From a virus (taxonomy: Duplodnaviria; Heunggongvirae; Uroviricota; Caudoviricetes): DNA of 20,548 nt. The stretch is from the IMG/VR virus record IMGVR_UViG_2872698443_000003; one strand, 5' to 3'. This document shows positions 1 to 17,765 of this stretch, in pieces (the stretch's first letter is position 1; every line of letters begins with the position of its first letter). A program made the translations under genes and the position numbers. Below the pieces are notes generated by a model. It made no database searches, was not told the DNA's origin, and saw only the letters and a program-made list of their open reading frames with translations.

Positions 1-366
1 ATGATTGATGTCTTAGGACCGGAGAAACGCAGACGGCGTACTACACAGGAAAAGATCGCTATTGTTCAGCAGAGTTTTGAACCGGGAATGACGGTCTCCC
101 TTGTTGCCCGGCAACACGGTGTGGCAGCCAGCCAGTTATTTCTCTGGCGCAAGCAATACCAGGAGGGAAGTCTTACTGCTGTGGCCGCAGGAGAGCAGGT
201 CGTTCCTGCCTCTGAACTTGCTGCTGCCATGAAGCAGATTAAAGAACTCCAGCGCCTGCTCGGCAAAAAAACGATGGAAAATGAACTCCTTAAAGAAGCC
301 GTTGAATACGGGCGTGCAAAAAAGTGGATAGCGCACGCGCCCTTATTGCCCGGGGATGGGGAGTAA
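1..366 (+). CDS. insC: IS2 transposase OrfA (InsC), 121 aa
   Basis: Track ORF 1..366; protein [30 protein letters not shown]... recognised as IS2 InsC. Confidence 0.92.
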
Positions 367-1229
367 GCTTAGTCAGCCGTTGTCTCCGGGTGTCGCGTGC
401 GCAGTTGCACGTAATTCTCAGACGAACCGATGACTGGAAAGATGGTCGCCGCAGCCGTCACTCAGATGATACGGATGTGCTTCTCCGTATACACCATGTT
501 ATCGGAGAGCTGCCCACGTATGGTTATCGTCGGGTATGGGCGCTGCTTCGCAGACAGGCCGAACTTGATGGTATGCCTGCGATCAATGCCAAACGTGTTT
601 ACCGGATCATGCGCCAGAATGCGCTGTTGCTTGAGCGAAAAACCGCTGTACCGCCATCGAAACGGGCACATACTGGCAAAGTGGCCGTGAAAGAAAGCAA
701 TCAACGATGGTGCTCTGACGGGTTCGAGTTCCGCTGTGATAACGGAGAAAAACTGCGAGTCACGTTCGCGCTGGACTGCTGTGACCGTGAGGCACTGCAC
801 TGGGCAGTCACTACGGGCGGCTTCGACAGTGAAACAGTACAGGACGTCATGCTGGGAGCGGTGGAACGCCGCTTCGGCAACGAGCTTCCGGCGTCTCCAG
901 TAGAGTGGCTGACGGATAATGGTTCATGCTACCGGGCTAATGAAACACGGCAGTTTGCCCGGATATTGGGGCTTGAACCGAAGAACACGGCGGTGCGGAG
1001 TCCGGAGAGTAACGGCATAGCAGAGAGCTTCGTGAAAACGATAAAGCGTGACTACATCAGTATCATGCCTAAACCAGACGGGTTAACGGCAGCAAAGAAC
1101 CTTGCAGAGGCGTTCGAGCATTATAACGAATGGCATCCGCATAGTGCACTGGGTTATCGCTCGCCACGGGAATATCTGCGGCAGCAGGCCAGTAATGGGT
1201 TAAGTGATAACAGGTGTCTGGAAATATAG
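324..1229 (+). CDS. insD: IS2 transposase OrfB (InsD), 301 aa, -1 frame relative to insC; OrfAB fusion expected by programmed frameshift
   Basis: Track ORF 324..1229 with DDE-type integrase core; overlaps insC at AAAAAAG 318-324. Confidence 0.92.
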
Positions 1230-1240
1230 GGGCAAATCCA

Positions 1241-1744
1241 CTGCAACGTGCCGGAATCGATTTGGCGATCTACTTTGATGATGCGCCGTCAGCGCAACTC
1301 ACTCATCACTTTCTGATGGATGAAGAAATCCTGCCAGTATGTAGCCCGGAATACGCTCAAAGACATGCTTTAACCAACACGGTAATTAACCTGTGTCACT
1401 GTACGTTGCTCCATGACAGACAGGCATGGAGCAACGACTCCGGTACGGATGAATGGCATAGTTGGGCGCAACATTATGCGGTTAATTTGCCGACATCTTC
1501 TGGAATTGGCTTTGATCGTTCTGATTTAGCTGTTATTGCCGCGATGAATCATATTGGGGTGGCGATGGGAAGAAAACGCCTGGTACAAAAAAGGCTTGCC
1601 AGTGGTGAGCTCGTCGCGCCGTTTGGCGATATGACGGTGAAATGCCATCAGCATTATTACATCACCACATTACCGGGCAGGCAGTGGCCAAAAATTGAAG
1701 CGTTTATTACCTGGCTAAGAGAACAGGTAAAAACCACTTCATAA
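1241..1744 (+). pseudogene. LysR-family transcriptional regulator, C-terminal substrate-binding portion only (about 168 codons); 5' half replaced by IS2
   Basis: Track ORF 1214..1744 begins inside the IS2 right end, so its first codons are IS-derived; no HTH N-terminus. Position next to the torI/attR end matches the K-12 dsdC neighbourhood (synteny inference, not sequence recognition). Confidence 0.6.
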
Positions 1745-1839
1745 TGAATAAAACCACGAGTTCCTGGTGTGCCTTATTCGGCCTGCTAGTTCGAATTTAA
1801 TTTACGGTTTTTATGTGGTTTTAGGGATAAACACAAGGA

Positions 1840-1854
1840 TGGTGTCCCCTGCAG
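1840..1854 (-). other. attR core: TGGTGTCCCCTGCAG, reverse complement of the 3' end of tRNA-Arg (argW)
   Basis: Match to recalled argW 3' terminus CTGCAGGGGACACCA; orientation agrees with minus-strand int at the far end; lies immediately outside torI. Confidence 0.6.
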
Positions 1855-1927
1855 ACATCTACTTGAGGCGGCATGGGATTGATTGGAATGGTGTTTTTTA
1901 GATGTGAAAAATATTTTACCCGCTATT

Positions 1928-2128
1928 TTACCCATTAGCGCGGCTTAAGAGCTTATTTTTGAATTCACAATGGTCACGATATAACCATCTTGCTCGCCCG
2001 TGGATAACTTTGGCTTTTGGCAGGTCGCCGGACTTAATCCGGTCATAGATGAAGGTTTTACCAAAGCCAGTATCAGCCATGATGAATTTCAAATCAACCA
2101 GTGAATCAGGCTGTAGTTCGTGTTGCAT
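1928..2128 (-). CDS. torI: TorI, KplE1 excisionase/recombination directionality factor and Tor response-regulator inhibitor, 66 aa
   Basis: Track ORF 1928..2128; protein MQHELQPDSLVDLKFIMADTGFGKTFIYDRIKSGDLPKAKVIHGRARWLYRDHCEFKNKLLSRANG matches E. coli K-12 TorI as recalled. Confidence 0.9.
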   Translation of the reverse strand: MQHELQPDSLVDLKFIMADTGFGKTFIYDRIKSGDLPKAKVIHGRARWLYRDHCEFKNKLLSRANG

Positions 2129-2171
2129 GAGTGCTATCTCCGAATAGGGAATCGAACCTGCAAATCAGGTA

Positions 2172-2194
2172 ATAAAAAACCGCCATCAGGCGGC
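2172..2194 (-). terminator. Rho-independent terminator (stem CCGCC/GGCGG, loop ATCA, T-run on the minus strand)
   Basis: Hairpin 2180-2193 followed on the minus strand by TTTTTTATT (plus-strand A-run 2174-2179); stop codon of the upstream small ORF lies in the loop. Confidence 0.55.
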
Positions 2195-2353
2195 TTGGTG
2201 TTCTTTCAGTTCTTCAATTCGAATATTGGTTACGTCTGCATGTGCTATCTGCGCCCATATCATCCAGTGGTCATAGCAGTCGTTGATGTTCTCCGCTTCG
2301 ATAACTCTGTTGAATGGTTCTCCATTCCATTCACCTGTGACTCGGAAGTGCAT
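2186..2353 (-). CDS. Small hypothetical protein, 55 aa (MHFRVTGEWNGEPFNRVIEAENINDCYDHWMIWAQIAHADVTNIRIEELKEHQAA), below the track's length cutoff
   Basis: Manual translation; ATG 2353 preceded by GGAG at about 8 nt; ends inside the terminator loop. Confidence 0.45.
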   Translation of the reverse strand: MHFRVTGEWNGEPFNRVIEAENINDCYDHWMIWAQIAHADVTNIRIEELKEHQAA

Positions 2354-2433
2354 TTATCATCTCCATAAAACAAAACTCGCCGTAGCGAGTTCAGATAAAA
2401 GAAATCCATCAATTGGTTAGGGTTTTTGTAATT

Positions 2434-2625
2434 CTACGAATTATGTTGTTTTTTAGCTTCAGCTTTCCATTCATCAAAGGCAGTGTCTTTGTTCATGGTG
2501 CTGATATTGATCTTACGGTCAATATCATATACACGCCACTCACCGTTAGGCCTCTCTTCGCATCTAACTAAGTATGAATTGCCATTAATATCTATGCGTC
2601 TGTCTATTTGCATGAACATTTTCAA
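2434..2625 (-). CDS. Hypothetical prophage protein, 63 aa
   Basis: Track ORF in the leftward operon, no overlap with better ORFs. Confidence 0.5.
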   Translation of the reverse strand: MKMFMQIDRRIDINGNSYLVRCEERPNGEWRVYDIDRKINISTMNKDTAFDEWKAEAKKQHNS

Positions 2626-2736
2626 TTTTCGAACCCTCTTTAATATGCATTTTTTGCTATTTCAGTAGTTTACTATTGATGAGGCGTTATTATACACACT
2701 TCATTAATGCAAGCATCTTTATGCTATGCTACTAAT

Positions 2737-3018
2737 TTAGCAATTGATATTTACCTTTATCGCGTATACCTTAACCGGTTTATCGCCGAAGTGGGGATGT
2801 GTGATTGTCTTGATTTCATATCCACCATACGGAACATCAATTCTACGGCTGGAATCGTCGCGCTTCGGATATCCCTTTGTGATAATCAGGCGGTCATACT
2901 CCCGGAACATAATTCGCTTATTCCAATAGTCATTACACAGGCGATACTCTTCCGTTTTCTCTCCTCGAATCATGGCATCGAAGTATTCACCTTTGACGGC
3001 AAGTTGCAGGTTAGCCAC
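2737..3018 (-). CDS. Hypothetical early-operon protein, 93 aa from GTG start (track ORF extends to 3087)
   Basis: GTG 3018 preceded by AGGAGG at 6 nt; the longer track start would overlap the upstream gene by 77 nt. Confidence 0.55.
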   Translation of the reverse strand: MANLQLAVKGEYFDAMIRGEKTEEYRLCNDYWNKRIMFREYDRLIITKGYPKRDDSSRRIDVPYGGYEIKTITHPHFGDKPVKVYAIKVNINC

Positions 3019-3577
3019 GGTTAACCTCCTGCGGCGGCTCTGGTAGCGGCATCCAGTGTGACGGCTCACATACCCCCTCAACACCATTCATGTAAAAGAA
3101 TTGAAATAACCCTTTACCTTTGTGAAACCCTACCATCTGCTCTTTTGTGTCTGAACAATAAACCAAAACATCTTCTTCGTTTGGCATTCGCTCACTACAG
3201 CTTATCCAACTATCCGGAGTTACCGGAGAGTTGCCCGATAGCTGGTTCAACTTGTAAGTTTGGCTTACAGGTTCGGCTTTCAGTTCTGCTATGCGCTTTT
3301 TTGCTGTTTCCAGCTCATCCAGCAGCGCCAAGACGGTAGCCGGATTGGCTGCGGCGATGAATTCAGCATTGGCCTGCTGTTCCATTTGGAAATCTTCATC
3401 GAAGCCGCTTTCAGGATGCGCTCCTTCAATTCTGCAAATGGGAAGATATCCAACAACGTCACGATGAATTAGCGCATCACCAGCATCAAGCCTCTCCTCT
3501 CCATATTCTAGCGACCACACACCACACGTTGCTTTCTCTGCCGCCTCACGCAGTGCCTGATAGTCAATCTTGCTCAC
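3011..3577 (-). CDS. Ead/Ea22-like N-terminus plus DUF551-like C-terminus, lambdoid early accessory protein, 188 aa
   Basis: Track ORF; N-terminus [24 protein letters not shown]... and C-terminal WISCSERMP...HWMPLPEPP resemble Ea22/DUF551 proteins (recalled family features). Confidence 0.6.
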   Translation of the reverse strand: MSKIDYQALREAAEKATCGVWSLEYGEERLDAGDALIHRDVVGYLPICRIEGAHPESGFDEDFQMEQQANAEFIAAANPATVLALLDELETAKKRIAELKAEPVSQTYKLNQLSGNSPVTPDSWISCSERMPNEEDVLVYCSDTKEQMVGFHKGKGLFQFFYMNGVEGVCEPSHWMPLPEPPQEVNRG

Positions 3578-4056
3578 TGGTCGCCTCCTTTGCGAAGCTG
3601 GTCGGCGAACAAACGTACACTAGACGCTTCACTGCGTAGAAACTTAACGGCATAATCAAAACCACCTCGTTCTGCGTCGTCTGCTCCGTTGTCGAGGTTA
3701 TCTGCGTACATCTCTACCCCCTGCGCCCGTACTTCAGCCAGGAAAGCATCGGTAGATGGGGTGTTAAGTGAAAAGTCCTGTCGGCCTGATTTCAGATACG
3801 CAATGGCGATCTTTGTTGCTGCGCATTCGACAGCGAATTTCTCTTTTTCAGCAGCCATCTTCGCGCACTTGGCCTCAAGGTTATCAATCGTGATTCCAGC
3901 AGAACGACACTCCCGCAACGCCGTTTCCAGTTTTGATTCAAGTTCACCGAACTTACGCACCAGATATTCAGCGTTTGTTTCGTTAACCTTTAAATCACTT
4001 GGGATGCATTTACCTTTCAGAAATCCATCCATCTCAATTAGTGACATTTGTTTCAT
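3574..4056 (-). CDS. Coiled-coil Ea22-like early protein, 160 aa from the internal ATG (track start 4074 is GTG)
   Basis: ATG 4056 overlaps the stop of the upstream 54-aa ORF in an ATGA motif; stop overlaps the next start (ATGA at 3574-3577). Confidence 0.5.
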
Positions 4057-4217
4057 TTCTTCCCACTCCGCCACATTGCATTCAGATATTTGTTGTCATT
4101 AACAGAACCGAAACTATTTCTCTTAAGCAATTCCTCTCTCGATGGCATTGGCTTTACGCGTTGGCGAATAATCATTTCTGCCGGAAGAATGCCGGGATTG
4201 TATGCAAGTCCTCTCAT
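4053..4217 (-). CDS. Small hypothetical protein, 54 aa ([54 protein letters not shown])
   Basis: Manual translation; ATGA overlaps at both ends (4214-4217 and 4053-4056); GGAGAG upstream. Confidence 0.4.
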
Positions 4218-4504
4218 GATTTACTCTCCACGAACTGGTCAACGGCCATGCTAAGTGACACACCTAAAGTATCGATATGCTGCTGAATATCCTGTAGCGT
4301 CCGCGCTTGAGATAACAGAATTTCACGGTTGCATAACTCTTTAACCAGATGCTCAAACTTGCTGTAATAACCGATACGGCTTAGTGTTTCTTTCCCTGCA
4401 TTCTCACCTTCTTTGATAATTCCTCTTTCGCTAAGAATCAGGTCGTGTTTGGTTCCGGTAATAACGTATTTGCCGAGGTCGATGTTTAGCTTCATTGTTT
4501 TCAT
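4214..4504 (-). CDS. Hypothetical protein, 96 aa from ATG 4504 (track ORF 4214..4657 has a longer, overlapping start)
   Basis: ATG 4504 preceded by GAGGAA at about 8 nt and lies 10 nt after the upstream stop. Confidence 0.5.
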
Positions 4505-4514
4505 TGTTAATTCC

Positions 4515-4811
4515 TCAGTCATTACTGATAGCGCCATAGCGTGAGCGGTAATTACGCAGGCGCGGGTCGATATATTCAGGGAAGTGGGTATATGTGGCTT
4601 TGCGGAATGGTCGGATTGATGTCTGGTAAATTCGCTCTCGTTCTTCTTTCTCTGCAAGCCATATACAGTGGCGAAATTCCTTTTCTTCTTTCGTTTCCTG
4701 CGGTAGCGACATTATCCGGTCGTAGTTTTTCCTGAATTTATCCAGCACCTCCGATACGGAATTGCCGGAACAGCGGCGCGCGTCGTCCGCACCATACAGA
4801 GGCGCTGGCAT
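4515..4811 (-). CDS. Hypothetical basic protein, 98 aa
   Basis: Track ORF; AGGAG 6 nt upstream of ATG 4811. Confidence 0.55.
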   Translation of the reverse strand: MPAPLYGADDARRCSGNSVSEVLDKFRKNYDRIMSLPQETKEEKEFRHCIWLAEKEERERIYQTSIRPFRKATYTHFPEYIDPRLRNYRSRYGAISND

Positions 4812-4824
4812 GATTTTCTCCTGA

Positions 4825-5340
4825 TTAAATTGCGTGAATAGCGTGACGAGGGAAGGGGAGGGTTACTGGCGCAAAAGGTATATCGTCGTCAAACTCCATA
4901 GGTGGTTCGCTGTGATTTACCTGCTTCTGAGGCTGCTGTTTTTGTTGCTGACCGTTATTTCGCTGAGGTGAAGACTGTTCATTGCTTCCTTGCTTGCCAC
5001 CAAGCATTTGCATGGTTCCACCAACGCCCACGATAACTTCGGTAGTGAACCGATCCTGTCCGCTTTGATCCTGCCATTTTCTTGTCCGCAATTTTCCTTC
5101 AAGATAAACCTCAGAGCCTTTTCGCAGATATTCGCTGGCAATTTCTGCCAGTTTCCCGCTCATTACCACACGGTGCCACTCCGTCTGCTCCTTTTGCTCT
5201 CCAGTTTGCTTATCACGCCATTGTTCTGACGTAGCAACTATAAGGTTTGCAAATGCCGTTCCTGATGGTGAATATCTGATTTCTGGATCATGCCCAAGGC
5301 GACCAATAATGATCACCTTATTTACGCCTCTACTTCCCAT
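4825..5340 (-). CDS. ssb: Phage single-stranded DNA-binding protein with a 15-residue extension after the canonical DDDIPF tail, 171 aa
   Basis: N-terminal OB-fold region closely matches E. coli SSB as recalled ([51 protein letters not shown]...[10 protein letters not shown]); C-terminus reads ...[24 protein letters not shown]. Confidence 0.88.
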
Positions 5341-6048
5341 TTATGCCGCCTGTTTTAGTTCGTTAACTCTGATGTTCATTACCTGAACGCATTTAGCCTG
5401 CGCATCCTCATTGCCAGCCATTAATTGCCAGTCATGCTGATAACGTTCTATGAGTTTTTTCTTGTCAGTTTCTGTTGATGCATAATCGCTGAAGTCTTTC
5501 AGGATTTGTTCGCAGTCAACCGATGGAGATTTCTGGTTGGTATTTTCTGGTGATGGTTTGTTATCTGATGCTGGGATTGCCCAGCCCGGCAGCGATGGAG
5601 GGAGCCAGTAAAATCCTGTTCCATCCTTCAGTTTTGCCCTGTGCCACCCCTGCTTTTTATCGGGAGATGTTTGTGCGAAACCTTCCTCAAGGTTATACAG
5701 ATACCGACCGATTCCCCACTGAACGGCAGCGCGCTTCATTGCACCGGAACGACCACCTTTGACGGCTTCTACCTGCGTGTTTTCAGCAGCATCCCATTTG
5801 GTTACCCATTCGGAATCAATCTTTATTGATATGCCGCATTCAACGCCGCCGTTGTTGGGAATATCGCGGTATTCATTGCGCCATCCTGCTTTGCCACAAA
5901 CATCGTCAAGGCGTTTCATGATTGCCCGGTTCGTAACATAAGCCAGCACCATAGCCCACACCTTGCCATCGCGTGTTTTACCGCTTTGCTGTATTCGCCA
6001 TTCGATATCTTCAGGGCAGAATGGCTCATCGAATTTGTTCAAATCCAT
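5341..6048 (-). CDS. Rad52/Sak-type single-strand annealing recombinase, 235 aa
   Basis: Track ORF directly upstream of and abutting ssb; motifs resembling the Rad52/22 family (recalled, not searched). Confidence 0.55.
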   Translation of the reverse strand: MDLNKFDEPFCPEDIEWRIQQSGKTRDGKVWAMVLAYVTNRAIMKRLDDVCGKAGWRNEYRDIPNNGGVECGISIKIDSEWVTKWDAAENTQVEAVKGGRSGAMKRAAVQWGIGRYLYNLEEGFAQTSPDKKQGWHRAKLKDGTGFYWLPPSLPGWAIPASDNKPSPENTNQKSPSVDCEQILKDFSDYASTETDKKKLIERYQHDWQLMAGNEDAQAKCVQVMNIRVNELKQAA

Positions 6049-6056
6049 AATTCACC

Positions 6057-6227
6057 TCAGAATGGACATGGCCCAAGGAAATAACGCTGGTTTAATACTT
6101 CGACTCGGGACAAATTAAGGCATACCCGCATTCCTTCGCGGTCACCATTATGGCGATACCAGAGAGCTTTTTGCGTGTACATGCGTCTCTGTAACTTGCT
6201 CTCCTTCACTGTGGTTGCAAGTGACAT
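6057..6227 (-). CDS. Small hypothetical ORF, 56 aa, strong SD (GGAGAT) but overlaps the 6148..6306 ORF out of frame
   Basis: Manual translation (MSLATTVKESKLQRRMYTQKALWYRHNGDREGMRVCLNLSRVEVLNQRYFLGPCPF). Confidence 0.3.
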   Translation of the reverse strand: MSLATTVKESKLQRRMYTQKALWYRHNGDREGMRVCLNLSRVEVLNQRYFLGPCPF

Positions 6228-6306
6228 GAATATCTCCTTCGTTACCGATTAATTCTTTCATCTGACGAATGAATTCTTCGTCTGACCAGTTATCTGTAAA
6301 ACTCAT
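6148..6306 (-). CDS. Small acidic hypothetical protein, 52 aa
   Basis: Manual translation; start ATG overlaps the upstream stop in ATGA at 6303-6306. Confidence 0.35.
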   Translation of the reverse strand: MSFTDNWSDEEFIRQMKELIGNEGDIHVTCNHSEGEQVTETHVHAKSSLVSP

Positions 6307-6455
6307 TTCCTGCGATACCACGGAATGTTGATCGCTGATTTCATCGCTTTATTTGCTTCAAGCCACATTTTGGAATCACCAATAAATCTGGCTATTACTG
6401 CTTTGTTCTGTGCAGCACGAAGCATCTGGTGATTAATGACTATTTCATTGCGCAT
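6303..6455 (-). CDS. Small hypothetical protein, 50 aa (MRNEIVINHQMLRAAQNKAVIARFIGDSKMWLEANKAMKSAINIPWYRRK)
   Basis: Manual translation; GGAGG 5 nt upstream of ATG 6455. Confidence 0.4.
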   Translation of the reverse strand: MRNEIVINHQMLRAAQNKAVIARFIGDSKMWLEANKAMKSAINIPWYRRK

Positions 6456-6574
6456 AACGCCTCCAGTTGTTTCTTTGCTGCTCTGATTAATTGTTTAACT
6501 CGGCGTGATAATTCAGATTCGTGCGGGTAGAAAGCGGACATGACGCCGCTACCCGCGAGCTGAAAGTGCATCAT
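6440..6574 (-). CDS. Small hypothetical protein, 44 aa from the internal ATG; the longer track ORF 6440..6679 would read through a terminator
   Basis: AAGGAG 7 nt upstream of ATG 6574; terminator 6641-6664 sits inside the longer track ORF. Confidence 0.4.
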   Translation of the reverse strand: MMHFQLAGSGVMSAFYPHESELSRRVKQLIRAAKKQLEALCAMK

Positions 6575-6640
6575 GGGTAACTCCTTATATTTGATTGCAT
6601 AACGAAAACGCCTCAAGTGAAGCGTTATTGGTATGCATAT

Positions 6641-6664
6641 AAAAAAGCCCCCACACTGGAGGGC
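6641..6664 (-). terminator. Rho-independent terminator on the minus strand
   Basis: Minus-strand RNA GCCCUCCAGUGUGGGGGC followed by UUUUUU. Confidence 0.55.
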
Positions 6665-6759
6665 AAAGAAGATTTCCAATAATCAGAACAAGTCGGCTCC
6701 TGTTTAGTTACGAGCGACATTGCTCCGTGTATTCACTCGTTGGAATGAATACACAGTGC

Positions 6760-6963
6760 TTATTCGCGAGCTTTGAGCATTGCGTCTGCAAACTTATATG
6801 CAGCGCTTGCTGCATAATTAACAGCTCCATCAGAATCATTATCGATAATCGATGGATTGCTAATCATTGCTTGCATAGCCTTTGCCGCGAAGTAATCACG
6901 TAATGTCGCATCACTTGCCATTTCTGGGCGTTTGATATCTGCTTCGTAAAACTCGCACATCAC
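6760..6963 (-). CDS. Hypothetical early protein, 67 aa
   Basis: Track ORF; start overlaps the upstream stop (ATGA at 6960-6963). Confidence 0.5.
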   Translation of the reverse strand: MMCEFYEADIKRPEMASDATLRDYFAAKAMQAMISNPSIIDNDSDGAVNYAASAAYKFADAMLKARE

Positions 6964-7256
6964 TCACCTCCCAGAGCCTTGATGATTGCTGCAAAACCTT
7001 TATTAACAGCTCCATACCATTCTGGATATGTTGTCGTTGTTCTATTTTTGGATTGCTTAAGTAATAACTGAAGTGCTTCGAGAAGGTCAGGTGCTGCCGC
7101 TATTAGATTGGCATCTTCAATGCATTGAACTTCCTCACAGATTGCAATATACGAACGCCAGCCTGCGCCATTTTCAAGAGAGTCTGCCTGGATGATTTTA
7201 ATCTCATCGCCATCCATCATTATTTCCCACTTACCTTCAGTACCTTTAAATTCCAT
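6960..7256 (-). CDS. Hypothetical early protein, 98 aa
   Basis: Track ORF in the leftward operon. Confidence 0.5.
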   Translation of the reverse strand: MEFKGTEGKWEIMMDGDEIKIIQADSLENGAGWRSYIAICEEVQCIEDANLIAAAPDLLEALQLLLKQSKNRTTTTYPEWYGAVNKGFAAIIKALGGE

Positions 7257-7276
7257 GTTAGCCTCTGTTGTTTATG

Positions 7277-7307
7277 CCAAAAATAAAGGCCACCATCAGG
7301 CAGCCTT
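7277..7307 (-). terminator. Rho-independent terminator, related in sequence to the one at 2172-2194
   Basis: Minus-strand stem of about 9 bp (two G-U pairs), loop UGAU, then UUUAUUUUUGG; stop of the 7296..7496 ORF lies in the loop. Confidence 0.5.
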
Positions 7308-7496
7308 GTTGTTCAGTTTACCAAGTTCTCTGGCAATCATTGCCGTCGTTCGTATTGCCCATTTATCGACATATTTCCCATCTTCCATTACAGGAAACAT
7401 TTCTTCAGGCTTAACCATGCATTCCGATTGCAACTTGCATCCATTGCATCGTTTGAATTGTCCACACCATTGATTCTTATCAATAGTCGTAGTCAT
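7296..7496 (-). CDS. Cys-rich small protein, 66 aa, possible zinc-binding
   Basis: Track ORF; C-x4-C-x2-C-x5-C spacing in the N-terminal half. Confidence 0.5.
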   Translation of the reverse strand: MTTTIDKNQWCGQFKRCNGCKLQSECMVKPEEMFPVMEDGKYVDKWAIRTTAMIARELGKLNNKAA

Positions 7497-7574
7497 ACGG
7501 ATAGTCCTGGTATTGTTCCATCACATCCTGCGGATGCTCTTCGAACTCTTCAAATTCTTTTTCCATATCTCACC

Positions 7575-7901
7575 TCAAATAAGTGGTTTGCTGCCTAATT
7601 TCATTTTCTGGCGACCAACACAAGTCACACCCATTTCACTGCGTGGCTTGCTGTACCATGTGCGCTGATTCTTGCGCTCAATACGTTGCAGGTTGCTTTC
7701 AATCTGTTCGTGGTATTCAGCCAGCACCGTAAGGTCTATCGGATTCAGTGCGCTTTCTACTCGTGATTTCGGTTTGCGATTCAGCGAGAGAATAGGGCGG
7801 TTAACTGGTTTTGCGCTTACCCCAACCAACAGGGGATTTGCTGCTTTCCATTGAGCCTGTTTCTCTGCGCGACGTTCGCGGCGGCGTGTTTGTGCATCCA
7901 T
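7575..7901 (-). CDS. N: Antitermination protein N (lambda-like), 108 aa from the internal ATG
   Basis: MDAQTRRRERRAEKQAQWKAANPLLVGVSAKPVNRPILSLNRKPKSRVESALNPIDLTVLAEYH... matches lambda N as recalled; the track ORF's 30 extra N-terminal codons are not part of N. Confidence 0.9.
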   Translation of the reverse strand: MDAQTRRRERRAEKQAQWKAANPLLVGVSAKPVNRPILSLNRKPKSRVESALNPIDLTVLAEYHEQIESNLQRIERKNQRTWYSKPRSEMGVTCVGRQKMKLGSKPLI

Positions 7902-8011
7902 CTGGATTCTCCTGTCAGTTAGCTTTGAGTAACGCGCCGTGATGCTTATCTCCACGGTTGCTGTCTTGCAGCTGCATTTCGCGCTACTCAAAGCCTTCTG
8001 CTTTGAATGCT

Positions 8012-8042
8012 GCCCTTCTTCAGGGCTTAATTTTTAAGAGCC
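8012..8042 (-). promoter_or_regulatory. nutL site: boxA (GCTCTTAAAAATTAA) and boxB hairpin (GCCCTGAAGAAGGGC)
   Basis: Minus-strand sequence GAGGCTCTTAAAAATTAAGCCCTGAAGAAGGGCAGC, near-identical to lambda nutL as recalled. Confidence 0.85.
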
Positions 8043-8082
8043 TCACCTTCAATGGTGGTTAGTGCGTCCTGCTGATGGCTAA

Positions 8083-8111
8083 ATAGTACGATTTGTACTT
8101 TATCGAGTCAA
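8083..8111 (-). promoter_or_regulatory. Candidate pL promoter (-35 TTGACT, 17-nt spacer, -10 TACTAT) with operator palindrome AGTAC-N5-GTACT at 8085-8099
   Basis: Read on the minus strand upstream of nutL; palindrome overlaps the spacer and -10. Confidence 0.5.
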
Positions 8112-8174
8112 TACAAAATGTTCTAAATATAATTGGTTTTTTATAACGCTTTGTATTTAATGGGTTTATATTTT

Positions 8175-8206
8175 GGAAAAAGAAAACCCGACACTAAGGT
8201 CGGGTT
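8175..8206 (-). terminator. Rho-independent terminator downstream of cI
   Basis: 8-bp stem AACCCGAC/GTCGGGTT with 6-nt loop, followed on the minus strand by TTCTTTTTCC. Confidence 0.6.
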
Positions 8207-8236
8207 ATTGTTGTGTGCTTTAGAGTGGTGAGGCTG

Positions 8237-8896
8237 TTAACTAAATGTCTCTTCAGGCCACTGGCTGGCGATAACTTTCCCTACAACGGAACAGCTATCA
8301 TTGCATGGGATCATTGGATATTGCGGGTTTAGTGGCTGTAGGAACACCTGACCGCTATCCCTGATCAGTTTCTTGAAGGTAAACTCGTCACCACCAAGTC
8401 TGGCTATGCAGAAATCACCTGGCTCAACAGCCTGCTCAGGGTCAACGAGAATTAACATCCCGTCAGGAAAGCTTGGCTTGGATCCTGTTGGCGCGGTCAT
8501 GGAATTACCTTCAACTTCAAGCCAGAACGCACAATCACTGGCTTTTTTGGTTGTGCTGACCCATCTCTCCGCATCACCTTTGGTAAAGGTTCTAAGCTCA
8601 GGCGAGAACATCCCGGCCTGAACATGAGAAAAAACAGGGTACTCATATTGTTTTTTAACGGGGGCAGATGAGTATTCGCCAACAGGTGAAAATGTACCGT
8701 CGTGGTTGAATGAGACGTTATCAATACCAAGGTATTTAAACACCACACCAATCTCGTCAAGAGATGGATGACGAGATCCGCGCAACCAGTGACCAATTCC
8801 ACCCTGCGTCATACCAAGCTCTTCAGCTAACTTCTCTTGAGTTATGCCGAGCTCTTTCATTCTGGATCTAGCCAGTTCATACCATTTCATTTTCAT
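8237..8896 (-). CDS. cI: CI-type prophage repressor: lambda-identical C-terminal dimerisation/autocleavage domain, divergent N-terminal HTH domain
   Basis: From ...[39 protein letters not shown] onward the protein matches lambda CI as recalled; N-terminus ([37 protein letters not shown]) does not. Start is ambiguous (ATG 8896, 8890 or 8932; possibly leaderless). Confidence 0.85.
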
Positions 8897-8952
8897 ACCC
8901 TTATTATTACGCTCTGTACTAAAACCATCCATGCACAAGATGTATTTTTTGT

Positions 8953-8981
8953 TTGCATTCTAAAAGTACATATCGTATTAT
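8953..8981 (+). promoter_or_regulatory. Candidate pR promoter (-35 TTGCAT, 17-nt spacer, -10 TATTAT) with operator half-palindrome AGTAC-N5-GTATT at 8965-8979
   Basis: In the 70-110 bp cI-cro divergent region; motif related to the pL-side palindrome. Confidence 0.45.
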
Positions 8982-9007
8982 TGTTTCATGGTTACTATGG
9001 AGGGCAT

Positions 9008-9223
9008 ATGAGCAACCTACGAAAATATCGAGAGTCACTGAATATCTCTCAAACAACACTTGCTAAGGCAGTTGGATGCACACAGGGAGCTATCGGACAT
9101 TGGGAATCTGGTCGTCGCTTCCCAGACCTTAAAACATGCCGTGCTCTTGTTGAGTGCCTAAACAAGTTAGGCGCAAAAGTCAGTCTTGATGACGTGTTCC
9201 CGCCGGAACACAAAGCCGCTTAA
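9008..9223 (+). CDS. cro: Cro-like HTH (XRE-type) repressor, 71 aa
   Basis: ATG 9008 with GGAGGG upstream; HTH ISQTTLAKAVGCTQGAIGHWESG; position between the operators and nutR. Track ORF 8837.. has a spurious N-terminal extension. Confidence 0.75.
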   Translation: MSNLRKYRESLNISQTTLAKAVGCTQGAIGHWESGRRFPDLKTCRALVECLNKLGAKVSLDDVFPPEHKAA

Positions 9224-9231
9224 GACATTCC

Positions 9232-9263
9232 CGCTCTTACACATCCCAGCCCTGAAAAAGGGC
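9232..9263 (+). promoter_or_regulatory. nutR site: boxA CGCTCTTA and boxB GCCCTGAAAAAGGGC
   Basis: CGCTCTTACACATCCCAGCCCTGAAAAAGGGC, near-identical to lambda nutR as recalled. Confidence 0.85.
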
Positions 9264-9342
9264 ATCAAATTAAACCACACCTATGGTGTATGCATTTATT
9301 TGCATACCTTCAATCAATTGTTATCTAAGGAAATACTTACAT

Positions 9343-9636
9343 ATGGTTCGTGCAAACAAACGCAACGAGGCTCTAAGAATCGAGAGTGCGTTGCTTAACA
9401 AAATCGCAATGCTTGGAACTGAGAAGACAGCGGAAGCTGTGGGAGTTGATAAGTCGCAGATCAGCAGGTGGAAGAGGGATTGGATTCCAAAGTTCTCAAT
9501 GCTGCTTGCTGTTCTTGAATGGGGCGTCGTCGACGACGATATGGCTCGATTGGCACGACAAGTTGCTTCGATTCTCACCAATAAAAAACGCCCGGAGGCA
9601 ACCGAGCGTTCTGAACAAATCCAGATGGAATTCTGA
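9343..9636 (+). CDS. cII: Transcriptional activator CII (lambda-like), 97 aa
   Basis: [75 protein letters not shown]... matches lambda CII as recalled; ATG at 9343. Confidence 0.9.
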
Positions 9637-9668
9637 GGTCATTACTGGATCAATCCACAGGAGTCATT

Positions 9669-9815
9669 ATGACAAAACAACTCAGTCCTTACCAGGACAA
9701 AATTCACAAACACATACTACGTGATCGCTTCCTGTCCAGCTTCAAGCAGCCTGGTCGATTCCGGGCTGAGTTGGAAAAAGTGAAGCTGATGCAGAAGGAG
9801 AAAGGTCATGAGTAA
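9669..9815 (+). CDS. Small hypothetical protein, 48 aa, between cII and the replication initiator
   Basis: Manual translation ([48 protein letters not shown]); AGGAG 6 nt upstream; overlaps the next start by 8 nt. Confidence 0.4.
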
Positions 9816-10668
9816 TCTTGCAACCGTAACACATTTAAGGCCTTCACAACGGCCTGTGGAGCGTCGTGTGGCAGAAGTTGAAGATGGTTATACCCGTCTT
9901 GCAAATGCCCTGTATGAAGAGCTTATCGGCGCAGATTTAACGAAAAATCAGAGCAAGGTTGCCCACGCCATATGCCGTAAAACATACGGCTACGGTAAAA
10001 AGATGGATCGCATTTCTGATAGTCAGTTAGCTCAAATTACCAGGCTGCCAAGACAGAAGGTAAACAAGGCCAAGAATGAGCTTATCGCGATGAAGGTTAT
10101 CCTTCGCGAAGGCCAGCAAATCGGGCCTAACAAGAACATCGAAGAATGGCAAATCGAAGGGTGTCACTACTCTGGTGATAATGTCACTGCATTGGTGACA
10201 AAAAGTGTCACCAAAACGGTGACAGCGCTGTCACCAAAACAGGGACACACAAAAGAAACTATTACAAAAGAAAAAAGAAATAATAAAAACACTATGTCCG
10301 AAAGTGTTCGGACGGAGTGTGAAAAATCATCTGACCGTCACGAAGAAACCGACAAGGCATTCGAGGAAATATTCTGGTGTGCAGGCATGCGGAAAGCCGG
10401 GAAGAAAAACGCGGCTTCGGCATTCAGAACACAGTTCAGGGAATGGCGTAAAACTACCAGGGGTACGGCAAGCGAGTTTGCCACGATGCTGGCAGAAGAC
10501 ATCGCATGCAGGAATGGTAAGCAGTTCGGATTCGACAGGTTGTTACCATCGAGCTACCTGAACGGTCAACGCTGGAACGACGAGAAGCCAGAAACTATTC
10601 AACCACAATCCAAACCATCATCCGCAATCACCGTATCGAAAACTGGCTACGTGTTTTTCGACAGGTGA
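9808..10668 (+). CDS. Replication initiator / replisome organiser (O-like), 286 aa, with origin iterons inside the gene
   Basis: Track ORF at the O position after cII; internal GTGACA/TGTCACC iterons plus AT-rich tract. Confidence 0.6.
10160..10296 (+). repeat. Candidate replication origin: iterons (GGTGACA-N5-TGTCACC, GGTGACA-N4-TGTCACC plus half-sites) followed by an AT-rich tract at 10250-10296
   Basis: Seen directly: ...GGTGACAAAAAGTGTCACCAAAACGGTGACAGCGCTGTCACCAAAACAGGGACACACAAAAGAAACTATTACAAAAGAAAAAAGAAATAATAAAAAC. Confidence 0.6.
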
Positions 10669-10671
10669 ACC

Positions 10672-10779
10672 ATGAAATCAAAAATCAAATCGCTACTGGT
10701 CGCTGGTTATAACCACGGCTGGTTAAGTATTTCGTTTGTCGATTTCTGGTTTAAAAATCTCAATCTGAGGGAATCATGA
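10672..10779 (+). CDS. Micro-ORF, 35 aa, hydrophobic (MKSKIKSLLVAGYNHGWLSISFVDFWFKNLNLRES)
   Basis: AGGTGA upstream; stop overlaps the primase-helicase start (ATGA at 10776-10779). Confidence 0.3.
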   Translation: MKSKIKSLLVAGYNHGWLSISFVDFWFKNLNLRES

Positions 10780-12656
10780 CGCCAAGTGAACTTAGCGACC
10801 TGCTTTGGGCGCAGGTTGACAGGGTGGCTCCGCACCTGTTGCCAAACGGCAAGAAAGAGGGGCATGAGTGGGTTGCCGGTAACGTCAACGGTGACAAGGG
10901 AAACAGCCTTAAGGTCAACCTTAGCGGCAAGAAAAAATGGGCTGATTTCGCTGAGGGAGACGGCGGTGACATGCTTGATTTGTGGATGGCATGTCGTGGA
11001 ATTAACCTGCATCAGGCTATGCAGGAAGCGAAAGCCTTTCTCGGAATCAAGGATGACGATCACCATTTCGATGCCAAACGTGAGAAGAAATTCTCCAGAC
11101 CTGACCGCAAGAAAATCGCCCGCTACGTTACCAGAACAGAATCCCATCTTGAGTACCTGCAATCGCGTGGCATATCGCCAGAAGTCGTAAAGCGCTACGA
11201 GGTTGTCAGCGGCAAGGTGTGGAAGGGAGAACGAGAACTTGATGCACTGGTGCTTCCGTACAAACGCGATGGTGAGTTGTTGCAGGTCAAGCGAATCAGC
11301 ACTGAGCGCCCGGACGGGAAGAAAGTCATTATGGCAGAAGGTGATTGCGAACCTTGTCTGTTCGGATGGCAGGCTCTGGACGCTGGCGTGAGGGCGGTTG
11401 TGCTTTGCGAAGGCGAAATTGATTGTATGAGCTATGCGCAATACGGCATCTCGGCGTTATCCGTGCCGTTTGGTGGAGGGAAAGGCGCTAAGCAACAGTG
11501 GATTGAGTTTGAGTACCACAACCTCGACAGGTTTGAGGAAATATTCATCTCGATGGACGTTGATGATGTTGGTCGTGAAGCCGCAAGGGAAATCGCAAGC
11601 CGACTCGGTGAACATCGTTGCCGTCTTGTTACTCTGCCGTACAAAGACATCAACGAATGCCTGATGAACGGTGTTACCGAGGATGAAATCTGGCAGTACA
11701 TCGGCACGGCATCCTACTTCGATCCTGAAGAACTCTACAGTGCGCGAGAGTTTTACCAGGACACTATCAACGCTTTCTACGGCAAGCAGCAGTATCTGTT
11801 TAATCCACCGTGGGAATCTCTGGCAGATAAATTCCAGTTCCGTGAGGCAGAGTTGACGCTGGTCAATGGTGTGAACGGTCACGGAAAAACGGAGGTTGTC
11901 GGGCATATGGCACTTGAGGCAATGCGTCAGGGTGTGAAGACGTGCATCGCGTCACTTGAGCTGAAGCCTGGTATTCTCCTTAAGCGCCTTACCCGTCAGG
12001 CGACGTGCTGCAAGATGCCGCCAGTGCTGGAAATTGACTCTGCATTTAAATTTTATGACGAAAGACTTTGGGTGTTTGGTCTGACCGGAACGGCGAAAGC
12101 CGACAGGCTGATCGAAATATTCGACTACGCTCGCCGCCGATACGGGATCCAGTTATTCATCATCGACAGCCTGATGAAATGTGGCATAGGCGACGATGAC
12201 TATAACGGGCAGAAGGCGTTTGTTGACTCGATTTGCGACTTCAAAAACAAAACAAACTCCCACGTCATTCTCGTTACTCACTCGCGAAAAGGAGACAGCG
12301 AAGAAAAACCAACCGGGAAAATGGACGTAAAAGGCTCTGGAGCGATAACAGACCTGACAGACAACCTTTTCATCATCTGGCGTAACAAGGCTCGCGAGAG
12401 AGCGTTACAGAGAGTTCAGAGTGGTGAAAAGATGTCAGAGAAGGACGAACAGCTACTGGCATCTCCGGCATCTGTTTTGATGCTTGAAAAACAACGTAAC
12501 GGCGAAGGTTGGGAAGGTGGTGTCCCGTTGTTCCTTGACGAGCAATCGCACCAGTTCCTGCAACTTGAATCAGGATCGCCATATAGCTACATCGCCAATA
12601 TGCCGAAATCGGAATATGACGAGGCGTGGCGACAGGAAAACGTGACGGAGTATTAA
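10776..12656 (+). CDS. Bifunctional primase-helicase (Toprim domain plus DnaB/RecA-like helicase core), 626 aa
   Basis: Toprim-like VVLCEGEIDCMS and ISMDVDD; Walker A NGVNGHGKT; Walker B-like LFIIDSL; occupies the lambda P position. Confidence 0.7.
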   Translation: MTPSELSDLLWAQVDRVAPHLLPNGKKEGHEWVAGNVNGDKGNSLKVNLSGKKKWADFAEGDGGDMLDLWMACRGINLHQAMQEAKAFLGIKDDDHHFDAKREKKFSRPDRKKIARYVTRTESHLEYLQSRGISPEVVKRYEVVSGKVWKGERELDALVLPYKRDGELLQVKRISTERPDGKKVIMAEGDCEPCLFGWQALDAGVRAVVLCEGEIDCMSYAQYGISALSVPFGGGKGAKQQWIEFEYHNLDRFEEIFISMDVDDVGREAAREIASRLGEHRCRLVTLPYKDINECLMNGVTEDEIWQYIGTASYFDPEELYSAREFYQDTINAFYGKQQYLFNPPWESLADKFQFREAELTLVNGVNGHGKTEVVGHMALEAMRQGVKTCIASLELKPGILLKRLTRQATCCKMPPVLEIDSAFKFYDERLWVFGLTGTAKADRLIEIFDYARRRYGIQLFIIDSLMKCGIGDDDYNGQKAFVDSICDFKNKTNSHVILVTHSRKGDSEEKPTGKMDVKGSGAITDLTDNLFIIWRNKARERALQRVQSGEKMSEKDEQLLASPASVLMLEKQRNGEGWEGGVPLFLDEQSHQFLQLESGSPYSYIANMPKSEYDEAWRQENVTEY

Positions 12657-12685
12657 ATGACCATCTACATCACTGAGCTAATAAC

Positions 12686-12717
12686 AGGCCTGCTGGTAAT
12701 CGCAGGCCTTTTTATTT
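12686..12717 (+). terminator. Rho-independent terminator after the primase-helicase
   Basis: Stem AGGCCTGC/GCAGGCCT with 8-nt loop, followed by TTTTTATTT. Confidence 0.6.
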
Positions 12718-12732
12718 GGGGGAGAGTAAATC

Positions 12733-12939
12733 GTGGCTGAGTTTATGCTCGTCGCATTCAAATGCGTTGGCGTTGGATGGATTCTTCTGACGTTTTTTAT
12801 TGTTCTGCATAGCTACATTCGTCTTGTGAATGACGGTAAAGACCCATGGTATACGTTGTTTGGCGCTGCATTTGTCTGGGTGATTATCGGTGTTATGCCT
12901 GTCGCTGTAGCAAAAATGGCGTGGCGTTTTGTGAGTTGA
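12733..12939 (+). CDS. Small membrane protein, 68 aa, two predicted transmembrane helices
   Basis: Track ORF, GTG start with GGGGGAGAG upstream; hydrophobic stretches LVAFKCVGVGWILLTFFIVL and FGAAFVWVIIGVMPVAVA. Confidence 0.5.
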   Translation: MAEFMLVAFKCVGVGWILLTFFIVLHSYIRLVNDGKDPWYTLFGAAFVWVIIGVMPVAVAKMAWRFVS

Positions 12940-12956
12940 ACTGAGGGTAAGTATCG

Positions 12957-13313
12957 ATGGACGAATCAAGAAAGCAGTTTGAGGAATACGTTGCCAAAAA
13001 ATTGAGATTACCATTCGAGATGATAACCGAGGCAAGAAATGGTGATAGGTACTTCGCATTTTCAAGCATGGATATTCGTCACTCCTTAAATGAGTGGTGG
13101 ACTTTATGGCAGGCATCGCGAGCAGCTATTGAACTGGATATCGACTGGCCAGAATCGAATGACGACTTTTGGAAAGATGGTGAAGAAGGTGCTTATGCGA
13201 TGGGTTATGAGGATGGGCGTGACAAAACGGTAATTGCAGTAATGAAAGCTATCAGAGCCGCTGGAATTAAAGAGAAGAATTTCGATGAAGCAAACAATAT
13301 TCCTCCGAACTAA
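12957..13313 (+). CDS. Hypothetical acidic protein, 118 aa, at the position lambda uses for ren
   Basis: Track ORF; GAGGGT upstream. Confidence 0.5.
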   Translation: MDESRKQFEEYVAKKLRLPFEMITEARNGDRYFAFSSMDIRHSLNEWWTLWQASRAAIELDIDWPESNDDFWKDGEEGAYAMGYEDGRDKTVIAVMKAIRAAGIKEKNFDEANNIPPN

Positions 13314-13695
13314 GCAACAACAGCAAGCCGCAATCAACGCCATCCTCGCAACACCACTCGATAAAGACAAGCCAGTCACCATCCGCATTACTGACTACAA
13401 GCGCAACCTTGACCAGAACGCAAAATTTCACGCGATGCTGGCGGATATCGCACGTCAGGTTCAATGGTGCGATAAGTGGTTAAAACCAGAACAATGGAAG
13501 GTTTTGTTGATTAGCGGTCATGCAGTGGCAACAAAGCAGGAAGCTGATGTTTTACCCGGCCTTGAAGGCGAATACGTCAACATTCGCGAAAGCAGCGCGC
13601 AGATGAGCGTGAAGCGTATGGCAAGTCTTATCGAGTACACAACAGCATGGGCTATTGGTCAGGGTGTCAGATTTACCGACAGGAGGTACGAATGA
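13285..13695 (+). CDS. ninB: NinB (Orf) recombination mediator, 136 aa
   Basis: Track ORF; similar in length and in the central ...LDQN... region to lambda NinB as recalled. Confidence 0.7.
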
Positions 13696-13868
13696 GGCGA
13701 CAGCGACGAAGTTTCACCGACATCATCTGCGAAAACTGCAAATACCTTCCAACGAAACGCTCCAGAAATAAACGCAAGCCAATCCCAAAAGAATCTGACG
13801 TAAAAACCTTCAATTACACAGCTCACCTGTGGGATATCCGGTGGCTAAGATATCGTGCGAGGAAATGA
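13692..13868 (+). CDS. ninE: NinE, 58 aa
   Basis: [58 protein letters not shown] matches lambda NinE as recalled; ATG 13692 with AGGAGG upstream; ATGA overlap with ninB. Confidence 0.85.
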
Positions 13869-14212
13869 CAATGGATTATTCACAGTTAAGTGATTTTGAA
13901 ATTAACAGAATGGTAGGAGACATAATTTTTAAAGGCCTTTGGGCAAGTAAACCGGAAACATCAGGGAATAACACCAACAAATGGTATTACGGAAATGCTG
14001 ATACAACTTTTGAGCCATTAAATCATTTGCCTGACTACTGCAATGATCCGAGCGCTTCATGGCCGATTATTGAGAAATACAGGATTTCTATCTTAGACCA
14101 GTTAACTGAATGGTGTGTGGATGCAAAAGGCGTAAGCCCAATATTTGATACCAGACCTCTCCGCGCCGCCATGATTGTCTTTCTCATGATGCAGGACGCC
14201 AATAATGCTTAG
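13865..14212 (+). CDS. Hypothetical nin-region protein, 115 aa (possibly DUF2591/NinX-like)
   Basis: ATG 13865 overlaps the ninE stop (ATGA); track ORF 13829.. has a short upstream extension. Confidence 0.5.
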
Positions 14213-14381
14213 CCCATCCCAATCCCTTCAATACCAGAAAGAAAGCGTCGAGCGGGCTTTAACGTGCGCTAACTGCGGTCAGAAGCTGCATGTGCTGGAA
14301 GTTCATGTGTGTGAGCACTGCTGCGCAGAACTGATGAGCGATCCGAATAGCTCAATGTACGAGGAAGAAGACGATGAATGA
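14205..14381 (+). CDS. ninF: NinF, 58 aa, below the track cutoff
   Basis: Manual translation [58 protein letters not shown] matches lambda NinF as recalled. Confidence 0.8.
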
Positions 14382-15096
14382 GTTAATAAATGGCAATGCC
14401 ATCAAAATGACAAGCATTGAAATCGCTGAGTTGGTGGGTAAGCGTCATGACAATGTGAAACGTACCATCGAAACGCTGGCTAAAAATGGTGTTATCCGGC
14501 TTCCTCAAATTGAGGTTTCCGAAAGAATCAATAACTTAGGGTTCAATGTTCAGTACGAGCATTACGTCTTCGAGGGCGAACAAGGTAAGCGAGACAGTAT
14601 TGTCGTTGTTGCCCAGTTGTCGCCAGAGTTCACCGCTCGCCTTGTTGACCGTTGGCGAGAGCTTGAAGAAGCTGCGGTTAATATCCCCAAAACGCTACCG
14701 GAAGCGTTGCGCCTTGCTGCTGATCTTGCTGAGCAGAAAATGCAGCTGGAAAACCAGCTCGCAATTGCCGCACCTAAAGTTGAGTTTGCCGATCGCGTTG
14801 GCGAGGCCAGCGGAATTTTGATTGGAAACTTTGCAAAGGTTGTTGGAATTGGTCCAAACAAACTGTTTGCGTGGATGCGCGATCACAAAATCCTTATTGC
14901 TTCAGGTTCCCGGCGCAATGTGCCAATGCAGGAATATATGGATCGCGGCTATTTCGCAGTGAAAGAAACAGCGGTCAACACAAATCACGGAATACAGATA
15001 TCGTTCACCACAAAAATCACCGGGCGTGGTCAACAGTGGCTGACCAGAAAGCTGCTCGATAACGGAATGCTGAAAGTAACCGGGGAGGCTGCTTAA
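14374..15096 (+). CDS. Rha-family phage regulatory protein / antirepressor (Rha-like N-terminus, KilAC/Ant-like C-terminus), 240 aa
   Basis: Track ORF; N-terminal [30 protein letters not shown] is typical of Rha proteins; family assignment from recalled features. Confidence 0.6.
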   Translation: MNELINGNAIKMTSIEIAELVGKRHDNVKRTIETLAKNGVIRLPQIEVSERINNLGFNVQYEHYVFEGEQGKRDSIVVVAQLSPEFTARLVDRWRELEEAAVNIPKTLPEALRLAADLAEQKMQLENQLAIAAPKVEFADRVGEASGILIGNFAKVVGIGPNKLFAWMRDHKILIASGSRRNVPMQEYMDRGYFAVKETAVNTNHGIQISFTTKITGRGQQWLTRKLLDNGMLKVTGEAA

Positions 15097-15386
15097 TGGC
15101 TAACCTACGCAAAGAAGCGCGCAACAGAGAATGCCAGGTACGTATTTACGGCGTATGCAATGGCAACCCTGAAACTACAGTTCTGGCACATTACCGGATG
15201 GCTGGAATTTGCGGAACGGGAATGAAACCTGACGACCTGATCGGCGCATGGGCTTGTAGCGCGTGTCACGATGAAATCGACCGACGTACCCATAATATCG
15301 ACAACAAAGACGCCAGACTTTACCACCTCGAAGGCGTGATCAGGACGCAGGCGATACTGCTGAAGGAGGGGAAGATTAAGTCATGA
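15096..15386 (+). CDS. YbcO-like (DUF1364) protein, putative nuclease, 96 aa
   Basis: Resembles DLP12 YbcO as recalled (CQVRI.GVCNGNPET.VLAH.R..G.CGTG.KP.DL...ACSACHDEIDRRTH). Confidence 0.7.
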   Translation: MANLRKEARNRECQVRIYGVCNGNPETTVLAHYRMAGICGTGMKPDDLIGAWACSACHDEIDRRTHNIDNKDARLYHLEGVIRTQAILLKEGKIKS

Positions 15387-15745
15387 ACGAATATCAGTTT
15401 GTGCTTCCATACCCGCCGTCGGTGAACACCTACTGGCGAAGACGGGGAAGCCAATACTACATCAGCGATAAAGGCCAGAAATACCGAAAAGACGTTCAGA
15501 AAATCATCCGCCAACTCAAGTTAGACATTTTCACCAAATCACGACTCCGCATCAAAGTAATCGCAGACGTTCCAGACTCCCGCCGCCGCGACCTCGATAA
15601 CATCCTGAAAGGTTTACTCGACTCACTTATCCACGCCGGATTTGCGGAAGACGACGAGCAATTCGATGACATTCGCGTAATTCGTGGCGTGAAAGTACCA
15701 GGCGGAAGGCTTGGAATAAAAATCACCGAACTGGAGAACGCATGA
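15383..15745 (+). CDS. rusA: RusA-type Holliday-junction resolvase, 120 aa
   Basis: Length and motifs (LPYPPSVN.YWR, DRRRRDLDN) match RusA as recalled. Confidence 0.8.
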   Translation: MNEYQFVLPYPPSVNTYWRRRGSQYYISDKGQKYRKDVQKIIRQLKLDIFTKSRLRIKVIADVPDSRRRDLDNILKGLLDSLIHAGFAEDDEQFDDIRVIRGVKVPGGRLGIKITELENA

Positions 15746-16136: not shown

Positions 16137-16191
16137 GGTAATGCTGCCAACTTACTGATTTAGTGTATGATGGTGTTTTTGAGGTGCTCCA

Positions 16192-16889: not shown

Positions 16890-16969
16890 GTTGGAGTCAT
16901 TACCGTAATGTTGTTCTGAGAAATACTCATATTGGTTGCCTTGATCTTTTTTCATACGATAACACGCAG

Positions 16970-17728: not shown

Positions 17729-17732
17729 TATT

Positions 17733-17759: not shown

Positions 17760-17765
17760 CATTAT

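Follow-up and report, generated by a model that had tools for sequence, protein, structure and literature searches.

The stretch of DNA analyzed here, which we refer to as the window, comprises 20,548 nucleotides and begins inside an IS2 element of the IS3 family. The part of the element present, on the plus strand, extends from the orfA start codon to the tip of the right inverted repeat; the first base of the window corresponds to IS2 base 92, and the left 91 bp of the element, including the left inverted repeat, sit upstream of it. Both IS2 genes align over their full length with the respective NCBIfam models, orfA with NF006928 ('IS2 repressor TnpA', 276.4 bits, cutoff 229) and orfB with NF006918 ('IS2 transposase TnpB', 704.4 bits, cutoff 597). 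Inside the orfA/orfB overlap, an A6G slippery run (AAAAAAG) can be read at 318-324 and is the predicted -1 frameshift site for the OrfAB transposase, and in related genomes PGAP annotates a joined CDS at this place ('IS3 family transposase, programmed frameshift'). In all three complete related genomes identified (S163-2, TUM9754 and 19SZHZ886Rt), IS2 is 1331 bp long and has imperfect terminal inverted repeats, with a left end reading TAGACTGGCCCC... and a right end reading ...GGGGCAAATCCA. The right end in the window likewise reads ...GGGGCAAATCCA, with 1240 as the last base of the element, and the junction there consists of ...GGCAAATCCA followed by CTGCAACGTGCC.... All features of IS2 looked for were found, namely two ORFs, the A6G site, a length of about 1.33 kb with inverted repeats and a 5-bp target-site duplication, the left end and the left copy of the duplication being visible in the relatives only.

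The IS2 right end abuts the 3' part of a LysR-type regulator gene, dsdC, which has the same orientation as the element. This junction had been described in an earlier note, and our analysis confirms it; the 168 codons counted there include the stop codon, as 1241-1741 represents 167 sense codons and the stop is located at 1742-1744. Codon 145 is present twice in the split gene owing to the target-site duplication. The assignment to dsdC, made in the note by synteny with K-12 where torI lies next to dsdC, proved correct: the synteny is present in W3110 and the fragment aligned to both available DsdC equivalog models, TIGR02036 (E=3.7e-91, model positions 138-302 of 302) and NF007491 (E=6.8e-90). 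Its scores of 305.3 and 301.1 bits fall below the respective cutoffs of 352.4 and 316 because 145 residues are missing, the C-terminal part of the model being aligned end to end. At the DNA level, thousands of genomes have an annotated dsdC that matches the fragment with 99-100% identity, and PGAP labels the fragment 'LysR substrate-binding domain-containing protein, incomplete, missing N-terminus'. It covers positions 52-208 of 209 of the Pfam LysR_substrate model, or about three quarters of the effector-binding domain, and a domain search of the window fragment returned no helix-turn-helix (HTH) domain. The break at codon 145/146 falls within the effector-binding domain, which spans Pfam residues 99-307 in the intact protein, and not between that domain and the DNA-binding domain. 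The HTH domain (residues 18-76) is encoded on a separate upstream fragment and not in one polypeptide with the effector domain. Since an HTH domain and a complete effector domain do not occur together in one polypeptide, dsdC is a pseudogene at this locus and not a functional member of the DsdC group.

Downstream of dsdC, the chromosome gives way to a prophage. Two attR hallmarks of an argW-integrated KplE1-type prophage could be identified, a copy of the argW 3' end and torI as the first prophage gene (Table 1). Sequence identity to the empty argW site of 19SZHZ886Rt stops at 1854, and the torI product carries the same accession (WP_001163428.1) as its counterpart in K-12 W3110, a genome in which torI and dsdC are neighbors, too. 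ARAGORN did not find a tRNA in the window or in the corresponding TUM9754 locus (L005), and the argW pieces were placed by string matching. KplE1 (CPS-53) of K-12 has its dsdC 3' flank, 15-nt argW core and TorI protein in common with the window, whereas the prophage body is different, with the window parting from K-12 after about 2178. A further 16-nt match to argW, GGAATCGAACCTGCAA, is found at 2148-2163 and is identical to the stretch of argW that adjoins the 15-nt attR core without a gap. The two pieces are 293 bp apart with torI between them, and this arrangement is kept in K-12 W3110 and strain 98193, making a chance match unlikely. The 16-nt match could be the remnant of an att site that was older or longer; alternatively, torI may sit inside a tRNA-like segment that has been split.

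Table 1 Features of the window around the dsdC/IS2 junction and in the second island.
Feature	Position	Strand	Basis or remark
IS2	1..1240	+	Bases 92-1331 of the 1331-bp element; NCBIfam matches, PGAP annotation, left ends of relatives
IS2 orfA (InsA/TnpA, 121 aa)	1..366	+	NF006928 match, positions 1-121 of 121
IS2 orfB (301 aa)	324..1229	+	NF006918 match
IS2 right inverted repeat, 41 bp	1200..1240	+	Outer element end, abuts dsdC; sequence reading and comparison of both ends
Target-site duplication CTGCA, right copy	1241..1245	+	Left copy upstream of the window, adjoining the IS2 left end
dsdC 3' part, pseudogene fragment	1241..1744	+	Codons 145-311 and stop; DsdC model matches, PGAP
attR core, last 15 nt of tRNA-Arg argW (TGGTGTCCCCTGCAG)	1840..1854	-	Chromosome/prophage boundary
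torI, excisionase (recombination directionality factor) of KplE1-type prophage	1928..2128	-	First prophage gene; unaffected by the insertion
Hypothetical gene (second island)	16970-17728	+	
O-antigen polymerase-like gene (second island)	17766-19109	-	
Second intS integrase (second island)	19391-20548	-	

A megablast search with window positions 1100-2200 against 5,426 complete E. coli genomes revealed the full IS2/dsdC/torI arrangement in two of them, S163-2 (pangolin, Guangzhou) and TUM9754 (Japan). A junction-specific query consisting of 27 nt of IS2 and the dsdC 3' half added a third complete genome, 19SZHZ886Rt (human faeces, Shenzhen). Further, an exact-protein look-up of the 176-aa ORF of the window returned TUM9754 and, in addition, three draft assemblies in which the junction is the same. 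The gene order upstream of IS2 is the same in all three complete genomes: evgSA, emrKY, dsdA, dsdX and a divergently oriented dsdC 5' fragment, annotated directly before IS2 as a 441-bp pseudogene ('LysR family transcriptional regulator, missing C-terminus'). Codons 1-145 of dsdC are thus located immediately upstream of IS2 in S163-2, TUM9754 and 19SZHZ886Rt, where the left junction consists of ...AACGTCAATCTGCA followed by TAGACTGGCCCC.... The 5-bp direct repeat CTGCA flanks the element on both sides in the related genomes (left, ...AATCTGCA followed by TAGACTGG; right, ...AATCCA followed by CTGCAACG), with only the right copy being visible in the window. In silico removal of IS2 together with one CTGCA restored a 936-bp ORF encoding a 311-aa product, identical to the annotated DsdC of strain 98193 (WP_001300996.1) and differing from it at the nucleotide level by two synonymous changes. 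Both dsdC halves are annotated by PGAP as pseudogene fragments.

The presence of codons 1-145, the CTGCA repeat on both sides and the restorable ORF point to simple transposition into codon 146 and not to a deletion. The earlier statement that IS2 had removed the 5' half of the regulator gene is therefore not supported; the 5' half goes unseen in the window because the window begins inside IS2, at the orfA start codon. We assign a probability of about 0.9 to the reading that a simple IS2 insertion splits dsdC, with the upstream structure of the source genome deduced from its near-identical relatives. One IS2 copy would have entered chromosomal dsdC at codon 146, in the same orientation, generating the 5-bp CTGCA duplication and splitting the gene into a 5' piece just outside the window and the 3' piece at its left end. 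The 5' piece would consist of codons 1-145, to which IS2 adds five residues and a stop, and neither piece should be able to act as a D-serine-responsive LysR activator. The insertion would then have been inherited in a small clonal lineage, independently of the prophage at the neighboring argW.

An IS2-associated deletion in the genome of the window itself, which would have taken away the dsdC 5' half and perhaps further parts of the dsd locus, has a small outside chance of being correct. The window starts inside IS2, so that its own upstream sequence is hidden from view, and this genome does carry another IS-mediated deletion, of 29,263 bp between direct IS1A copies relative to TUM9754. However, codons 1-145, the 5-bp duplication, dsdX and dsdA are kept in all three complete genomes that share this junction, and outside the IS1A deletion every base of the window agrees with TUM9754 (100% over both 1-16904 and 16905-20548). 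A mis-join at a repeated IS element during assembly is a further conceivable origin of the IS2/dsdC junction, given that IS2 is multicopy in these genomes (a query with 141 bp of IS2 returned 12-14 places per genome). We regard such an artefact as exceedingly improbable, as six independent assemblies, three complete and three draft, that come from different laboratories and hosts contain the identical junction, and the matching CTGCA is present on the far side of IS2.

The genomes sharing the simple insertion are very closely related. Over 4.7-10.8 kb, the flanks upstream of IS2 differ by 0-1 SNP among the three complete genomes, which are therefore considered one lineage, and their IS2 copies differ at 0-1 positions. 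Between the window and S163-2, a single difference is found in the first 14,200 bases. The source of the window is best placed as a fourth member of this lineage, whose isolates come from Japan and China, from humans and one pangolin. The lineage differs in what occupies argW. In 19SZHZ886Rt the site is empty and tRNA-Arg follows 95 bp after the dsdC stop, one draft with the junction carries the second argW island only, without this prophage, TUM9754 and S163-2 carry a complete prophage and the second island, and the window carries a prophage shortened by an IS1 deletion. The earlier note had located the disrupted regulator gene beside attR. The adjacency itself is real but, since the IS2 insertion is common to all of these argW states, including the empty site and the prophage-free draft, it is incidental to the event.

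Could the split gene still yield a product, or could the insertion serve a regulatory role? The earlier note had suggested that a C-terminal DsdC fragment might be made by read-through from IS2, based on an ORF that starts inside the element. Such an ORF, starting at GTG 1214, does run in frame into dsdC. However, in-frame TGA (1205) and TAA (1208) codons directly precede this start, and IS2 orfB, whose stop is located at 1227-1229, is read in a frame different from that of dsdC, so that no fusion with an IS2 protein is possible. No Shine-Dalgarno-like motif is found in the 20 nt upstream of any of the candidate starts GTG 1214, TTG 1262 and ATG 1316, no promoter could be identified, and the fragment lacks positions 1-51 of the effector-domain model, its first quarter. 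Production of a C-terminal fragment via read-through is consequently considered unlikely on these sequence features. A hairpin resembling a terminator at 1249-1267 is weak (3 GC pairs) and part of the native dsdC coding sequence, and was judged not meaningful.

More broadly, IS2 might drive the C-terminal fragment or downstream DNA, by read-through or from a fusion promoter. IS2 can form fusion promoters by way of an outward-facing -35 element in the right inverted repeat, ampC being one example (Jaurin & Normark 1983, cited in PMC9330008). Yet no sigma-70-like promoter site was found in positions 1-2400, compared with 2.6 expected from shuffled sequences, and the fusion-promoter idea thus finds no backing at this locus. 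The flank hexamers at 16-18 bp spacing, CTGCAA, TGCAAC and GCAACG, are poor -10 matches when read by eye, the last 150 bp of IS2 alone did not show detectable promoter activity in a reporter study (PMC12095673), and nothing is located downstream of dsdC on the plus strand before attR. In a second version of the regulatory explanation, the N-terminal fragment would serve as a D-serine-blind DNA-binding protein. The upstream fragment would be 150 aa long, with 145 native residues followed by HRLAP and a stop, and retains the HTH domain as well as the native promoter and start codon. It is more likely to be made than the C-terminal one, and could conceivably still bind DNA, although this is speculation. 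Taken with the in-frame ORF on its side and the stop codons, the differing orfB frame, the missing Shine-Dalgarno motifs and the truncated effector domain against it, a regulatory role of the insertion in either form is very improbable. Similarly slim is the chance that dsdC::IS2 was selected and does not reflect neutral decay, either because loss of DsdC is advantageous in the gut or because the 150-aa HTH/linker/effector-stub fragment persists, binds DNA irrespective of D-serine and changes how DsdC targets are expressed. For some E. coli, a role of DsdC as global regulator has been described (PMC9659370).

With dsdC split by IS2, the consequences for D-serine metabolism can be considered. 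DsdC is essential for dsdXA induction and D-serine catabolism, and an NMEC mutant without both of its dsdC copies does not grow on D-serine, while either copy supplied in trans rescues growth (PMC9659370; PMC4366372). The dsdC 3' half matches a single place in each of the three complete genomes; no second copy of dsdC and no plasmid match were found in them. Together with the split gene, this probably leaves the D-serine locus without its activator, as the earlier note had anticipated, and an intact regulator elsewhere, whose existence would have contradicted this view, was searched for and not encountered in the three complete genomes. Both dsdX and dsdA are annotated as intact in these genomes, with the 5' dsdC fragment divergent from them; the DsdX protein has the same accession as in K-12 W3110, and the 217 bp between dsdC and dsdX show no difference from K-12 W3110. 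It is therefore expected from gene content that dsdXA is non-inducible and D-serine use lost in this lineage. The intact dsdXA genes would stay at basal expression, and the strain could then neither use nor detoxify D-serine. Some D-serine tolerance might still come from basal dsdXA expression, or from a constitutive promoter mutation elsewhere. The analysis thus predicts a lineage unable to induce D-serine catabolism despite intact dsdX and dsdA, a trait that precise excision of IS2 could bring back.

Inactivation or absence of dsdC is not unusual in E. coli. Any dsdC sequence was detected in 2734 of the 5426 complete genomes, with 2696 containing at least 80% of dsdC in one place. These counts agree with the published, approximately even split of dsdCXA carriage and the hypervariable nature of the argW-dsdCXA region (PMC4366372). 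Natural loss of dsdC or dsdCX in this region through replacement by the csc sucrose locus, in EHEC and many others, is described in PMC4366372 (citing Moritz & Welch 2006 and Jahreis 2002), and the expected outcome is the same, namely no DsdC and no D-serine-inducible catabolism. In contrast to the csc replacement, the event described here is a potentially reversible IS insertion in which dsdX, dsdA and both dsdC halves are kept. An IS-split dsdC is also found in the complete genome of E. coli NCTC9008 (NZ_LR134236.1, 1447055-1448766), but there the gene is interrupted by an IS1A-family element, presumably through an independent event. IS insertions in dsdC therefore seem to recur at a low rate. 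Compared with IS2-mediated gene inactivation in E. coli generally, element size, orfA/orfB organization with the A6G site, inverted repeats, 5-bp duplication and a disrupted CDS are all alike and the mechanism is no different, only the target, dsdC codon 146, being peculiar to this lineage. With about half of the complete E. coli genomes being devoid of dsdC, dsdC::IS2 is an ordinary, already annotated IS pseudogene, a routine case confined to a small lineage that adds nothing new, and its significance beyond strain annotation is small. It does provide a caution for the interpretation of bounded stretches of sequence, in that a gene half seemingly missing beside an IS element at the edge is usually located on the other side of the element.

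The remainder of the window is occupied by the prophage and a second island. Positions 2165-9900 represent a lambdoid, P22-like early region, unlike K-12 KplE1 beyond about 2178. It encodes an anti-RecBCD protein, SSB, a Rad52-family recombinase, Kil, Ral, N and a LexA-family repressor as well as Cro-like and CII proteins and a replication O-like protein followed by a toprim helicase-primase. An IS1A element at 16137-16904 (region 15927-17327) interrupts the gene for the prophage Q antiterminator, and in TUM9754 the IS1A copy in Q is associated with a 9-bp target duplication (AACTATCTG). The right flank of IS1A in the window corresponds to the flank of a second direct IS1A copy located 29,263 bp further on in TUM9754, the result of a deletion of this length through IS1-IS1 recombination. 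What was lost comprises the 3' part of Q, the lysis genes and the entire set of virion genes, together with the prophage intS and the junction between prophage and island. Given that Q is split and the late genes are deleted, the prophage is a defective remnant. The resulting junction between truncated Q, IS1 and the island (16904/16905) is absent from complete RefSeq E. coli genomes, where the best coverage is 85%.

Positions 16905-20548 represent the second argW island, arranged in tandem to the prophage. In TUM9754, the island integrase is followed by an intact tRNA-Arg argW, and the window consequently spans nearly the whole dsdC-argW variable region. The prophage/second-island junction of TUM9754 (L005, 45001-45024), deleted in the window, contains 24 nt of the argW 3' end (TGGTGTCCCCTGCAGGAATCGAAA...) and no complete tRNA, consistent with successive integrations at argW.
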